DNA from: Candidatus Woesearchaeota archaeon | GTDB taxonomy: Archaea; Nanobdellota; Nanobdellia; Woesearchaeales; GCA-2686295 | Direction of reading: 5' to 3' | Assembly (NCBI GenBank): GCA_013202845.1 | Contig: JABMPT010000011.1 | Span: 7,669 to 71,668 of the forward strand | DNA: 64,000 bases | Shown here: positions 41,713 to 63,596 of the stretch, one piece after another | Layout of the letters: each line of letters starts with the position of its first letter | Numbering within the stretch: the first letter of the stretch is position 1 | Made by a program: the position numbers and the translations under genes | The notes under the pieces: generated by a model | Told to the model about the DNA's origin: nothing | What the model saw: only the letters and a program-made list of their open reading frames with translations | Database searches by the model: none

Positions 41713-42390
41713 TTAGGTAAAAATCTCAATACAATCGTTTTTTAGAGAATCATCCAGTATGTTGTAGCAAAAAGAAGAGTCATCAAATGAGAGCGCATCT
41801 AGATATTCTTGTCTATCAATACTTTCTTGCTGAGAGATAGTGTATATCCCTTGTTCTCTGTTGGCAAGTTCTTGCTGCAAGAATTCTTTTTCTTCTTTCA
41901 AAGCAATTATTCTCTTGCATAAAATCCTTTTAATTTCATCATCTACATTGAGACATTGTTTTATATTATTAGTTAGTATAGCTGCACGAACAGTTTTCAT
42001 ATCAGAGTCTTGCGATAGGATTAAAGTTTCACATTGATACTTTAAGTCAGCATTTGTTATGAACTCACATTCAACATTAGACAGACTCAAGAAAGCGTCA
42101 TTGAAAGCATCCATATCCTGAACTGGTGTGTTAATGAAATTTTGTCTGGTTTTCTTTCTTTCTTCAAGTTTTTGAAGAAAAGTATCTAGATTCTGCTGAT
42201 TATTTCTTTCCCACTCTTCTATTCTCTCTTCTTCTTCCTGTCTCAATTCATACCACTCACCTATTTTATCTATGGGTATATCAGGAGGTAATTGACGAAA
42301 AATGTAGAAACTATAAACAACTATCATAAATAAAACTATAAAAATTATTGAAACAATAATTTTTTTATTCATTGTTTTGTTATATCTCAA
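41713..42390 (-). CDS. Membrane-anchored protein with three Cys-pair repeats
   Basis: N-terminal TM; CEFITNADLKYQC, CLNVDDEIKRILC, CYNILDDSLKNDC. Confidence 0.75.
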   Translation of the reverse strand: MRYNKTMNKKIIVSIIFIVLFMIVVYSFYIFRQLPPDIPIDKIGEWYELRQEEEERIEEWERNNQQNLDTFLQKLEERKKTRQNFINTPVQDMDAFNDAFLSLSNVECEFITNADLKYQCETLILSQDSDMKTVRAAILTNNIKQCLNVDDEIKRILCKRIIALKEEKEFLQQELANREQGIYTISQQESIDRQEYLDALSFDDSSFCYNILDDSLKNDCIEIFT

Positions 42391-42401
42391 ATTAACTCAC
42401 C

Positions 42402-44954
42402 TCAGGAAAAAGCGTGGTTCGGCAAAATACAATTGACAAACAAATCACCTGTCTCAGTTATTAACATTAGTGCGTTTGAATCTTGTTTGACTAAAAAGTC
42501 CTTACCAGGAGTACTTTCAACATTGTCAGATTCAAAAATATTTTGTACATATAAATCTCCATTCTTTGTGATTGAAGCAACAACATCTCCACTAGAGGTT
42601 CTTATATCGAACGCCACAAAATTATTAGGATTTATTTGAGTATTATTAATCGCATCACCTTTTAGAGCTAATATACTATTTACATCAAGTGAAGCAACTG
42701 TTTCCCCATCATATTTTATCACGAAATTTCTACCTGACTCTGTAAAATCCTGATGATAACATCTTCTAAACACAGTAGATCCTTCAAATATCAAGTTACC
42801 AATTTGATCAAAGATATACACAACATCATTTCTCCTAGTCCTTGAACCCTTATAATCATAAACATAATGTATCTCTGCTAGGTTTGGTTTAGTCACCTTT
42901 ACAAGTTGTCCCTCTTCATTATAATCATACAAAGTTTCCAATGTTTGACCATCAGTGATTAGTTGTTCTTTTGATATGAATCCTCTTGGATCATAAAAAT
43001 ATGTGTAAGTTTCGCTGTCTGATGTAATAGTTAATAACTTGTTTGTTCCGTATTCATAGTTATAACTTCTCGTTAACCCACCTTCTATCCTCGAGAGCAT
43101 ATTTCCAATCCTGTCATAAGTATAAGAAATAGAGTTTCCAAAATAGTTGCTGTCAGTTACACTTGTTAATCTGTCTAAAGGATCATATTCTAAACCAAAG
43201 TTCATTCCTGTCATCGCAACAGTTAACGCATTACCTTCAATATCATAAGTGTATTGTTCATTTAACAACTCTGGAATAATGTTTGAAGAGCTGTCCTTTG
43301 AAGAAACATCTTGTATTCGGCCACTTGGATAATAATTATAATCAAAAGATATTTGTTGATCGCTTAATCCAAACCTGATTTCATCTATCGCTGAAAATGG
43401 GCCATAATCGTATTCGACTAAATTCTGAGGATTAGTTGAAACGCCATCAACAGAAAAACTCTTTAATCGGCTAAGAAGATCATAATCATAGTTAATCACC
43501 CTTCCTGCAGGGTCAATCATTTCCTTAATATTCCCAGATTTATCATAGATATAACTAGTTAGGAAAGTGTTCTCAACAAATCTTGTTGCAGTAGTTCCTC
43601 GCTCTATTTGTATATCATCAACGTATCTTGTCCCTGAAATAGGATTGGCAACATTTGTGTATCCAACATGGAGCGCTAGGTAGTCTGGAGTACAAGCAGG
43701 ATTAACAGTGAAAGTCTCTGTTATTCTTTGCCAAGCACTAGAAGCAGGATTCGGACCATGACCAGAGAACGTTTCAGAACCACAATCAGTATAAGACATA
43801 AGACCATGACTAACTCTTAGATCATCTCCAATTATTCCTGGAACAACTTTAGCCCAAAGACTATAAGTATAAGTTTCTCCAGGAACAAAAAACCTTCCTG
43901 GAACATTAATCTGATATTCAACTCTATCAACCATTTTCAAAGAATAAGTTCCAGAATGAGCCTCTTCAGTTGTTATTGAATAATCTCCATAACTATCAGA
44001 GGAAGAGTAGAAAAGAATATCTCCCCCAGTCCCAAACCCAGGATTTACCAATAAATTAACAGCATTATCAGATTTCATCTCAGACAAAATTCTTCCTTTC
44101 TTATCATAAAATAAAAATGTTGTTCCTGACGAATCGTCAACCATAAAAAGTCTTCCCATAGAATTATCATATGTATTGCCGGGACTTTCTGAACCACAAG
44201 CATCATAATAGTAACTCCTTAATTTAGTTTTGCCAGATATAACACACTGACCTCCAATGCATGTTTCTTGAGAGTCACAATCAGAACTATCAACACATTG
44301 ATCACAAGTACTAATACTATCACAAAAAATCTCATCTACAACAAACCCATCACAATCATTATCTAATCCATCACAAACTTCAACAGCTCCTGGCTTAGTT
44401 GCAGCGTTGTCATCATCACAATCAGTTCCTTGAGTTTCAGAACAACCACCAGGAACACAACCATAAGAATCACAAGTGCCAGAAACACTTTCAGATCTAA
44501 CTCCATCACTATCTGAATCACAGAAAAAAGTATAAGAACAAACTCCTCCATCATCAACACCATTAGCACAATCATTATCTACTCCATCACAAACCTCTGT
44601 AGCTCCTGGCTTAATTGCAGCGTTACCATCATCACAGTCAAGTAGTGTTGTAGGAGAACAACCAGCAGGAGTCAGACCTTGAAAAGTATCTCCATCACCA
44701 TCATTACAAGGAAGAAAACAAGAACCACCTTGACAAATATATCCTGGGTTACAATCACTACCAGCATATCCCTCCTGACAGTCATAACCGTCCCCCGGGA
44801 ATCTTTCACTATAATCGGTACATGTATTCTCATCAAAGCAACTACAACCTCCTGGACAAGCACCAGTGATAGCAGAAACTGAAATAGTATTTAAAAAGAA
44901 TAAACTTATCACTAGCAAAAGCAATCCAATGTAATTAATTATTTTTTTATTCAT
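42402..44954 (-). CDS. Secreted YD/Rhs-repeat protein (shell segment 4) with MopE-like metal-binding repeats and an inserted CBM4/9-like domain
   Basis: Signal peptide; two DCDD.NAA.KPGA.EVCDG.DNDC repeats; YDKKGRI; NLLVNPGF...YVDDIQIE; many YDxxGN/YDxLxRL repeats. Confidence 0.8.
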   Translation of the reverse strand: MNKKIINYIGLLLLVISLFFLNTISVSAITGACPGGCSCFDENTCTDYSERFPGDGYDCQEGYAGSDCNPGYICQGGSCFLPCNDGDGDTFQGLTPAGCSPTTLLDCDDGNAAIKPGATEVCDGVDNDCANGVDDGGVCSYTFFCDSDSDGVRSESVSGTCDSYGCVPGGCSETQGTDCDDDNAATKPGAVEVCDGLDNDCDGFVVDEIFCDSISTCDQCVDSSDCDSQETCIGGQCVISGKTKLRSYYYDACGSESPGNTYDNSMGRLFMVDDSSGTTFLFYDKKGRILSEMKSDNAVNLLVNPGFGTGGDILFYSSSDSYGDYSITTEEAHSGTYSLKMVDRVEYQINVPGRFFVPGETYTYSLWAKVVPGIIGDDLRVSHGLMSYTDCGSETFSGHGPNPASSAWQRITETFTVNPACTPDYLALHVGYTNVANPISGTRYVDDIQIERGTTATRFVENTFLTSYIYDKSGNIKEMIDPAGRVINYDYDLLSRLKSFSVDGVSTNPQNLVEYDYGPFSAIDEIRFGLSDQQISFDYNYYPSGRIQDVSSKDSSSNIIPELLNEQYTYDIEGNALTVAMTGMNFGLEYDPLDRLTSVTDSNYFGNSISYTYDRIGNMLSRIEGGLTRSYNYEYGTNKLLTITSDSETYTYFYDPRGFISKEQLITDGQTLETLYDYNEEGQLVKVTKPNLAEIHYVYDYKGSRTRRNDVVYIFDQIGNLIFEGSTVFRRCYHQDFTESGRNFVIKYDGETVASLDVNSILALKGDAINNTQINPNNFVAFDIRTSSGDVVASITKNGDLYVQNIFESDNVESTPGKDFLVKQDSNALMLITETGDLFVNCILPNHAFS

Positions 44955-44957
44955 CTT

Positions 44958-62859: not shown

Positions 62860-62880
62860 CCTTTATTTTTACGATGATTT

Positions 62881-62905
62881 ATGACACATGTTTTAGATGT
62901 GTCAT
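62881..62905. promoter_or_regulatory. Perfect 9-bp inverted repeat (operator or hairpin)
   Basis: ATGACACAT-n7-ATGTGTCAT in the 59-bp gap upstream of the 616-aa gene. Confidence 0.5.
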
Positions 62906-62918
62906 GATCAAAAAATTT

Positions 62919-63596
62919 TTATGTTTGTGATTTAGCAAAGCACCTCTGTTTTAGGACAGGGTTGCTTATTTGATCGCATAAACTTGAATCGCCTGTTTCT
63001 GCTGCTTCATAAGTGACATCCTCTATTATTTCAAACTCAGTCTTTGTTTGATTGGTCTCATTATCAAAATATATCGGTGGGTCCTTCTCTACTTCTTTTG
63101 CTCCAGTTAATATCAGACATCTGTTCTTTTGTATAGCGTTGGTTATCTGTTCACAAAGCAAAGGATCCTGCTGTTCAACAGCTTGCTGGATTACAGACTC
63201 GTATTCAGGAGGCGTAGCAGGGTTATCAGCGCCTAGCTCCCCAAGAATCGTCTTTTGACAAATATTCTTTTTGATAGGGTTGAATTGGTCGCACGCAGAT
63301 ATATCCCCACTTTCAATTGCCTCCTTAAGCATGTCGTATGATGATTTAGGTTCCTCTATAACAGGATCTTTTAAATAGTATTTATCGACGAATAAACCAA
63401 GAAGTCCAATTACTATTATCACTCCTAGAACAATAGCTCCCACCTCTTCGAACTTCTTTCGTCTCACTTTAGAAGCTGCCTCTTCTACATCCTCTTTTTT
63501 ATTACCAGCCTGGGTCAGTTGGTCTTTTGCCTGAGCAAGAGTTAGCCCTCTATGTGTCGCTTTTTCTAAATAATCTACCAACTGCTGTTTGACCAT
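62919..63596 (-). CDS. Membrane-anchored protein with three Cys-pair repeats and an N-terminal cytoplasmic helical motif
   Basis: LVDYLEKA..RG.....AKDQL.QAG; TM; DISACDQFNPIKKNIC, DPLLCEQITNAIQKNRC, DSSLCDQISNPVLKQRC. Confidence 0.75.
   Translation of the reverse strand: MVKQQLVDYLEKATHRGLTLAQAKDQLTQAGNKKEDVEEAASKVRRKKFEEVGAIVLGVIIVIGLLGLFVDKYYLKDPVIEEPKSSYDMLKEAIESGDISACDQFNPIKKNICQKTILGELGADNPATPPEYESVIQQAVEQQDPLLCEQITNAIQKNRCLILTGAKEVEKDPPIYFDNETNQTKTEFEIIEDVTYEAAETGDSSLCDQISNPVLKQRCFAKSQT

Follow-up and report, generated by a model that had tools for sequence, protein, structure and literature searches.

The window analyzed here, 64,000 nucleotides of contig JABMPT010000011.1 (positions 7,669 to 71,668) from a Candidatus Woesearchaeota archaeon (assembly GCA_013202845.1, hereafter G000), contains at positions 41713 to 63596 a run of 13 minus-strand genes, which we call g01 to g13 in the direction of reading. 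Our favored reading, to which we give a probability of about 55%, is that this locus is a conserved, operon-like Woesearchaeota cluster encoding a split tyrosine–aspartate (YD) cocoon of the TcB-TcC/Rhs type, a surface contact scaffold to which an ATP-binding cassette (ABC) transporter pair is accessory. Woesearchaeota belong to the DPANN archaea, a group believed to spend its life in attachment to other cells; to our knowledge, few molecular candidates for such contact are known. The locus is a conserved, lineage-specific candidate for this role, with parts that are recognizable.

Genes g09 to g12, together with g08, map in order onto the layout of single-chain TcB-TcC-type proteins, which runs from SpvB through a propeller and the YD shell to the rearrangement hotspot (RHS) core and the tail. 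Single-chain relatives of this kind include P0110 and P0084, proteins of ∼2150 residues that combine SpvB, FG-GAP, TcdB_toxin_midN, DUF6443, RHS repeats, and the core, and P0059, which has the same set of domains. On the scale of a single-chain relative, residues 643-891 of g10 (48415..51108) correspond to 998-1241, residues 1049-1149 of g11 (44958..48413) to 1226-1319 (in P0110), residues 452-708 of g12 (42402..44954) to 1356-1673, and the core of g08 (53108..54244; residues ∼41-160) to 1787-1941. Profile alignment with hhalign places g10 635-834 on P0084 986-1223 with a probability of 92.7%, and a bacterial protein of 2296 residues (L039, from a Candidatus Abyssobacteria metagenome-assembled genome) is collinear with g09 (51105..53123), g10, and g12. 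Fusion and fission points vary among genomes, g09/g10 being fused in a genome of the same family (G010) and on a metagenome contig (L045), and g11/g12 in a genome of the same genus (G006) and again in L045. A hydrophobic start is found in 17 of the 18 large segment proteins of related loci and in all of those in the window, and the frames of orthologues are open at 25-47% identity across genera and families.

The first-pass annotation had described five Rhs segments. YD/RHS repeats are indeed present, but only in g10, g11, and g12; the other two are recognizable only via family profiles, g08 as an RHS-core piece and g09 as an SpvB-like one. The Pfam model RHS_repeat (PF05593, cut-off of 22 bits) scores 40.4 bits on g11 (3.7e-10), 56.2 on g12, and 29 on the C-terminal piece of g10, and all four of its matches in the genome lie within these three proteins, among which the NCBIfam model YD_repeat_2x (TIGR01643) also matches. 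All three are secreted. In g10, DUF6443 (PF20041, 2.1e-8) is followed by a first YD arc at the C-terminal end. In g11, which contains 74 Cys, a Gly-rich middle, and a MopE motif detected by Pfam, the YD repeats occupy ∼90 residues at the extreme C terminus, and a Pfam search of this tail at E<=10 returned a weak TEN_YD-shell match (0.035). In g12, MopE-type Cys motifs and a CBM_4_9 domain (CBM, carbohydrate-binding module) are combined with a YD arc of ∼270 residues and a C-terminal domain of ∼105 residues; this protein matches Rhs proteins in the PDB (7q97 at 9.5e-11 and Tse15 at 1.2e-10). g10 has an LSGC lipobox, a possible lipid anchor; a conserved lipoprotein anchor was rejected since the lipobox is not kept in orthologues.

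The 378-residue g08 is the sole RHS-core protein in the 1.2-Mb genome and, for that reason, the sole candidate to close the repeats of g10 to g12. In an alignment of six orthologues, the signal peptide is followed immediately by a conserved block of ∼120 residues; the layout is an RHS-associated core (∼41-160), a Pro/Ser/Thr-rich linker, and a C-terminal tail of ∼130 residues. We assign this architecture because the family profile finds in the PDB the terminal part of YenC2, a TcC subunit (residues 601-685, E 1e-3), and relatives carry PF03527 (RHS protein; ∼22 of 60 profile matches scanned) or the end of the TEN_YD-shell model (positions 767-895 of 909; four of 60). Against 1.84 billion proteins, the profile gave 9829 matches at E<=1e-3, 206 at <=1e-10, and 19 at <=1e-30, many of them short with the core at the N terminus and some of them Rhs proteins of 2000-2800 residues with the core near the C terminus; a separate homologue search returned only two proteins for the family. 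Among 201 genomes of the order, including the unpublished G191, 33 have g08-like RHS-core genes (32 of 200 without G191). A short RHS-core gene directly before a g09-like gene is also found in two further genomes (G015 and G003). A match of g08 to gp41-5 in the PDB was judged spurious. The protein ends in CGLG (53108-53128) and two relatives that are 31-32% identical, P0016 and P0017, end in FCGIG and FCGLG, which may be a C-terminal Cys motif.

In g09, a signal/anchor segment and an SpvB-like start are followed by a hydrophobic insert (residues ∼123-239), which forms four helices in a low-confidence model. Its first ∼100 residues are common to proteins that match Pfam SpvB (PF03534), namely two of nine family members, with L032 at 6.7e-7, and hhalign places the g09 family on the SpvB region of P0084 with a probability of 58.7% and an E of 9.5e-5. 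PF03534 itself matches nothing in the genome, the window's g09 included, even at E<=1. Scores of g09 in Protein Atlas reach at most 0.81 and are leads only, and PDB sequence searches with g09, g10, and the g09 family profile gave no meaningful match. Neither the FG-GAP propeller nor TcdB_toxin_midN was detected by Pfam in g09 or g10.

Structure prediction gives weak support to docking of g08 on the YD pieces. When g10 600-897, g11 1040-1151, and g12 440-745 were folded with g08 38-175 as the partner, the ipSAE was 0.54 (0.48, 0.54, and 0.58 in individual runs), the best of three controls scoring 0.00; the pLDDT of the partner was at least 58 and contacts agreed between runs to at least 78%. 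Swapping the g12 piece brought the score to 0.00. In calibration, the mark was reached by 116 of 157 solved complexes and two of 215 mismatched pairs, and at 0.60 or under lie only 18 of the 157 solved complexes and both of the mismatched pairs that passed.

The gene-neighborhood comparison that had been proposed as a check revealed the same gene order in other Woesearchaeota genera and families. Within the genus, G006 contains g01-g12 and G005 g09-g13 on a contig that starts inside g09. Two genomes of the same family (f1), G009 and G010 (contig C54), contain g01-g10 and g01-g08, respectively, in both cases up to the contig end. In another family, G044 contains g05-g10 from the contig start, and in a third, G052 contains g05, g08, and g09 with no ABC pair. 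Finally, L045 contains a divergent g05, g08, and the g09/10 and g11/12 fusions, with no ABC pair, anchors, or CBM proteins. The cluster is therefore layered: 1) a core (g05 and g08-g12) is found in seven loci, 2) the core with the ABC pair in five, and 3) the core with the ABC pair, anchors, and CBM proteins in four, all from family f1. The cluster is more than a chance neighborhood: its gene order is kept across genera and families, and the rest of the genome has no YD repeats, RHS core, or Cys-motif proteins. The earlier description of a self-contained system holds for a conserved multigene unit but not for all 13 genes, as G052 (L029) and L045 have the core but neither an ABC pair nor anchors nor CBM proteins, and G044 has the ABC pair without anchors or putative fibers. 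The ABC pair, present in only five of the seven core loci, is accessory rather than essential. Among metagenomes, 80 loci were kept from 416 relatives: 78 were ordinary long SpvB-type proteins, one was a repeat of a second G010 locus (C26, see below), and one was L045.

The prediction of an ABC-2 permease and an ATPase was upheld. g06 (55243..56037), with six hydrophobic segments, matches ABC2_membrane_2 (PF12679) at 9.2e-14 (51.8 bits against a cut-off of 27.2), and its family profile has a single PDB match, NosY (7o0y_D, E 2.7e-6). g07 (54332..55246), with a C-terminal extension of ∼80 residues, matches ABC_tran (PF00005) at 3.6e-31 (109 bits); its closest PDB relatives are ABCA nucleotide-binding domains, then NosF (9.6e-38) and LptB. 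We agree that the pair is not of the importer type, there being no binding-protein family among the 13 proteins, a NosY-like permease, and an ABCA/NosF/LptB-like ATPase. The suggested likeness to GldA/GldF did not hold up: g07 scores 194 bits on the GldA equivalog (TIGR03522) against a cut-off of 402.6, and the genome has no GldG-type auxiliary protein (ABC_transp_aux, PF09822), which was found in two control genomes. The NCBIfam drrA model gives 249.9 bits, also under its cut-off. The orthologous permease adjoins g08 in all five genomes that have it (G000, G006, G009, G010, and G044) and was never found elsewhere. Permease relatives occur in 10 of the sampled genomes, but at orthologue level (E<1e-100) only in G000, G009, and G044, always beside g08. 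In G009 only, an extra ORF (open reading frame) of 151 residues with a hydrophobic start and Cys residues (L023, 16638-17093) lies between the ABC ATPase and g08.

Could the locus instead be two or three independent modules side by side, in which anchors, CBM proteins, and an ABC-2 exporter of an unrelated substrate such as a lipid or glycan neighbor Rhs-type surface proteins that act singly, with no joint complex? We regard this as unlikely, with some evidence on its side. The layers are separable, with the core only in G052 and L045, the core with ABC pair in G044, and all three only in f1, and a g08-like gene is lacking in each of the seven genomes whose permeases are more distant homologues. 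The 87-nt gap between g07 and g08 (54245..54331, minus strand) contains a TATA-like TTTTTATAG at ∼54254-54262, identified by eye. Moreover, five of six distant ABC-2 loci are near proteins of at least 20 Cys, which may only mirror how common such genes are (24 of the ∼1205 genes of G000). Against these points, G006 and G010 show a 4-nt overlap of the two genes in place of the window's gap; the orthologous permease is never away from g08; within the genome, the Cys-repeat family, YD repeats, and the RHS core are each confined to the locus; and g05 accompanies g08 in every core locus, whether the ABC pair lies between them or not.

An alternative that we hold to be about equally improbable is a classical polymorphic toxin locus, in which an RHS-core toxin g08 would be loaded into the YD pieces for delivery to competitors or hosts, and self-protection, as by LanFEG-type exporters, would fall to the ABC-2 pair together with g05 or g04. 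The C-terminal half of g08 is far less conserved than its core (top-residue frequency of 0.17-0.31 over residues 181-340, against 0.41-0.57 over 41-160), one relative (P0037) has an SLT lysozyme-like tail, and g07 scores 1e-55 on the lantibiotic-protection ABC family, below the family cut-off. A DPxG motif within 25 residues of the core end is kept in 70 of 113 more distant short relatives and eight of 13 long ones, and short genes for an RHS core with a tail (frames of ∼400-500 residues) are multicopy in some Woesearchaeota, including G078, G129, G052, and G015, with up to seven matches per genome. These multicopy genes may be a polymorphic toxin arsenal in DPANN archaea. However, DPxG is present in none of the 25 closest relatives of g08. 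No toxin family from Pfam or NCBIfam is found in the tail, which also has no usable Protein Atlas match, and the tails of orthologues have a weak C-terminal motif in common and are not swapped cassettes. Nor is there a gene between g08 and g09; since the two overlap by 16 nt, no small, immunity-type gene follows g08. Conservation of the ABC pair contrasts with divergence of the tails, and two of the seven loci have no such pair. Because the g08 clade has lost the self-cleavage motif and no immunity gene is adjacent, we infer a stable surface scaffold rather than a classical released toxin.

A bolder version of the cocoon proposal, which we consider distinctly less probable than either of these alternatives, is a TcA-independent, membrane-tethered cocoon of four to five exported chains put together extracellularly. 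In a single Woesearchaeota clade, it would be coupled via g01 and g05 to the NosY-like ATPase, whose mechanical work would open, position, or load it, making the locus an ATP-driven organelle of DPANN archaea for host contact or cargo transfer. That the pieces are nonfunctional fragments of a decaying, frameshifted giant Rhs gene is highly improbable: they are collinear with single-chain proteins and their number varies among genomes, but none lacks a start codon or a hydrophobic export segment of its own (the same is seen in 17 of 18 pieces from related loci) and frames stay open among orthologues, which is why we consider the split real, and g08 precedes rather than follows the other pieces.

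In the contact-scaffold reading that we favor, the pieces would come together as a YD cocoon on the outside of the membrane. The SpvB-like start would be provided by g09, with its hydrophobic helical insert holding the piece in the membrane, helped by g05. The YD sheet would be built arc by arc from g10, g11, and g12, which also bear Cys-rich modules and CBM_4_9 domains, the latter being likely binding parts. g08, encoded first, would close the shell with its RHS-associated core, and the linker and ∼130-residue tail would come along. The assembly would be a stable contact or adhesion scaffold, possibly holding tethered cargo, much as teneurins reuse the fold. As for the ABC pair, it would most likely act on membrane-embedded partners (g05 or g01, which have a common cytoplasmic domain) and not on a solute; this is speculation by analogy with NosFY and NosD.

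Several observations weigh against this scaffold reading. The ABC pair is missing in two of seven core loci (G052 and L045), and anchors and CBM proteins in three of seven. The window's own g08 and g09 have no direct match in Pfam or NCBIfam, and their identities rest on family profiles of modest score (the PDB E of 1e-3 and the hhalign probability of 58.7% given above). In the g08 model, confidence is limited to residues 41-95, which form β hairpins, and Foldseek gives no match at E<=1e-3; a comparison by VIA finds generic YD hairpins (Z of at most 6.3 over 47 residues) and weak teneurin fold matches. For g09, the model is unusable (pLDDT 44.9). The repeats of g12 are followed by a C-terminal domain belonging to that protein, and the YD stretches total ∼730 residues against ∼940 in the P0110 reference span, a shortfall that leaves shell closure a prediction. 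Since Rhs and Tc shells are solved, the docking score may reflect likeness to them more than binding. As a TATA-like element precedes g08, two transcripts are possible. Finally, none of the parts of the locus could be assigned a toxin, adhesin-ligand, or immunity function.

Among known systems, the TcB-TcC cocoon and Rhs toxins come closest. Like the assembly proposed for the locus, the Tc (toxin complex) BC subcomplex (YenB-YenC2, TcdB2-TccC3) is a YD cocoon of more than one polypeptide with an SpvB-type start, a closing RHS core, and a variable C-terminal region, as seen from the PDB matches and PMC5851990. The locus differs in having four to five pieces rather than two, each with an export signal; a core piece that is a 378-residue "mini-TcC" and is encoded first; no detected FG-GAP propeller or TcdB_midN; a cleavage motif lost in the g08 clade; and an archaeal host. 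Exchangeable C subunits encoded at separate loci are described for Yersinia in PMC11067744. The TcA families TcA_TcB_BD and VRP1 have no match in the genome, nor in the control genomes. A trafficking class with signal peptide and SpvB (TcdB/TcaC-type) is recorded for Euryarchaeota by Zhang et al. 2012 (PMC3482391). Rhs polymorphic toxins linked to type VI secretion (RhsA, Tse5, and Tse15) resemble the locus in their RHS repeats, in a core (putative at the locus), and in a variable tail, whereas the locus has a split architecture and lacks PAAR, an immunity gene, a recognized toxin domain, and the cleavage motif; the absence of PAAR, noted in the first-pass annotation, extends to the whole genome, with positive control genomes.

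Teneurins and bacterial teneurin-like proteins resemble the reading proposed here in that the YD shell is a stable extracellular scaffold and the self-cleavage motif is not conserved. According to PMC5851990, teneurins lack conservation of this motif and are not cleaved, and their C terminus leaves the shell yet stays attached, with a role in adhesion. Teneurins differ from the locus in being single chains and in having FN-plug, NHL, ABD, and Tox-GHH domains; no such domain was detected at the locus.

With NosDFY, the locus shares a NosY-related permease and a NosF-related ATPase, an ABC-2 pair without a binding protein among exported proteins. NosFY drives changes in its extracytoplasmic partner NosD. 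The locus has no nos genes, however, and the partner would be small single-pass proteins; NosD (PF05048) was not found in the genome, while six controls were positive. GldA/GldF/GldG is likewise an ABC-2 type pair without a binding protein.

As far as our literature searches show, this is the first link of the Rhs/Tc/teneurin fold to an ABC-2 transporter. Also not found in the literature searched were the split into four to five chains, a stand-alone secreted core encoded first, clade-wide loss of the cleavage motif, the linkage to ABC-2 and Cys-repeat proteins, and the occurrence in DPANN archaea, although surveys of archaeal polymorphic toxins may already mention such loci. The domain itself is already recognized, a short DPANN relative (P0029) being annotated at NCBI as "RHS repeat-associated core domain-containing protein." If the cocoon reading is right, several chains, each exported on its own, can make up a Rhs/Tc/teneurin cocoon with a stand-alone "mini-TcC" as the closing piece. 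Short secreted RHS-core proteins are numerous (113 of the best 150 g08 relatives).

The remaining genes of the locus encode anchors and CBM proteins. g01 (62919..63596), g04 (56534..56965), and g13 (41713..42390) form one family of single-pass membrane proteins with two or three Cys-x10-11-Cys repeats, whose Cys pairs are invariant in the alignment. g01 combines a cytoplasmic N-terminal helical domain, a transmembrane (TM) segment (47-75), and three extracellular Cys repeats; the short anchor g04 has a TM segment and two repeats; and g13 has an N-terminal TM segment, a Glu-rich stretch, and three repeats. Orthologues of g01 are present in G006, G009, and G010, and one of g13 follows g12 in G005. 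Three of the four small proteins of the genome with at least two copies of the Cys motif are in the locus, which supports the Cys-repeat anchors being specific to it within the genome. A large protein library contains eight homologues of the anchor family, none of them annotated. g05 (56034..56537) consists of a signal peptide, an ectodomain with four Cys that are invariant in the alignment, a TM segment, and a cytoplasmic helical tail similar to the domain at the N terminus of g01. Orthologues of g05 occur in G006, G009, G010, G044, and G052 and, in divergent orientation, in L045. Neither the anchor family nor the g05 family matches any Pfam or NCBIfam model.

g02 (61009..62859) is a secreted protein of 616 residues with a CBM_4_9-like domain at 315-444 (1.2e-5, 26.2 bits against a cut-off of 25.9) and a score below cut-off on the NCBIfam model GTA_spike_fiber; its orthologues in G006 are without the CBM stretch. 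Its paralogue g03 (56941..61005) is secreted, with 1354 residues and 68 Cys, and is linked to g02 solely by 40% identity over 328 residues. It carries C-terminal repeat modules, with PKD matches below cut-off. Its residues 966-1127 are 51% identical to part of an 841-residue, 87-Cys protein elsewhere in the genome (G000:C4:151944-154469), apparently a shared repeat module.

The 13 co-oriented genes described earlier are all present as minus-strand ORFs with exactly the limits given in this text, separated from g01 to g13 by 59, 3, -25, -4, -4, -4, 87, -16, -4, 1, 3, and 11 nt. Hydrophobic segments occur in every protein except the ATPase g07, and all 11 non-ABC proteins begin with one, in line with the statement that all but the ABC pair are exported or membrane anchored. 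The divergent start from cca is likewise confirmed: the neighbor is a nucleotidyltransferase fragment (63711-63998, PF01909), which corresponds to a complete CCA-adding enzyme in G006 and G009. The other limit of the run, placed at 41713, is not supported, since a tight co-oriented run goes on to 39988 through g14 (40778-41641, 287 residues, two hydrophobic TM segments), g15 (40401-40778, 125 residues), and signal peptidase II (39988-40407, PF01252, 2.5e-31), all on the minus strand, at spacings of 71, -1, and -7 nt; neither g14 nor g15 has a family match. These three genes may be a separate unit. They also lie 3' of g12 in G010 (L028) and are absent after the locus in G005 and G006. The 71-nt gap ahead of g14 contains a TATA-like TTTATATATT, found by eye. 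In the 59-nt gap after g01 (62860..62918, minus strand), the stretch 62881-62915 directly beyond the stop codon contains a run of T and an inverted repeat of 9 bp (62897-62905 and 62881-62889, by eye), which may be an attenuator or a stabilizing hairpin.

Two further observations concern ABC-2 genes. G010 has a second Rhs-type locus (L027, 8467-11330, G010:C26) with a g09/10 fusion, g11/12, g14, g15, and signal peptidase II, beside a different, divergent ABC-2 pair made of a 597-residue ABC2_membrane_3 protein and a DrrA-like ATPase. The distant ABC-2 loci near proteins with at least 20 Cys mentioned above lie in other Woesearchaeota (L031, L040, L041, L043, and L044); the link is suggestive.

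G000 is 1.2 Mb in 14 contigs, 91% complete, with ∼1205 genes, and the window encodes eIF-1A, eIF2-γ, and diphthamide synthesis genes. Besides signal peptidase II, the genome encodes a bacterial-type Lgt (PF01790, 2e-66, G000:C12:36627-37331), a family for which the positive controls were 10 bacteria and no archaeal control genome. SGC lipoboxes occur on three L045 neighbors, in addition to the LSGC of g10. Together, these features suggest that this Woesearchaeon has a lipoprotein pathway of bacterial type. Other large surface-type genes in the window encode an S-layer-like protein (PF05124, 12147-14435), a DUF11 protein (10261-12063), and proteins of 912 and 1056 residues without a clear family (1778-4516 and 28683-31853). 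Between window positions 51000 and 60999, for which the sequencing runs listed include none of RNA, about half of the sampled words fall in a run labeled viral metagenome, besides runs labeled freshwater metagenome, a signal that would fit very small cells passing filters.

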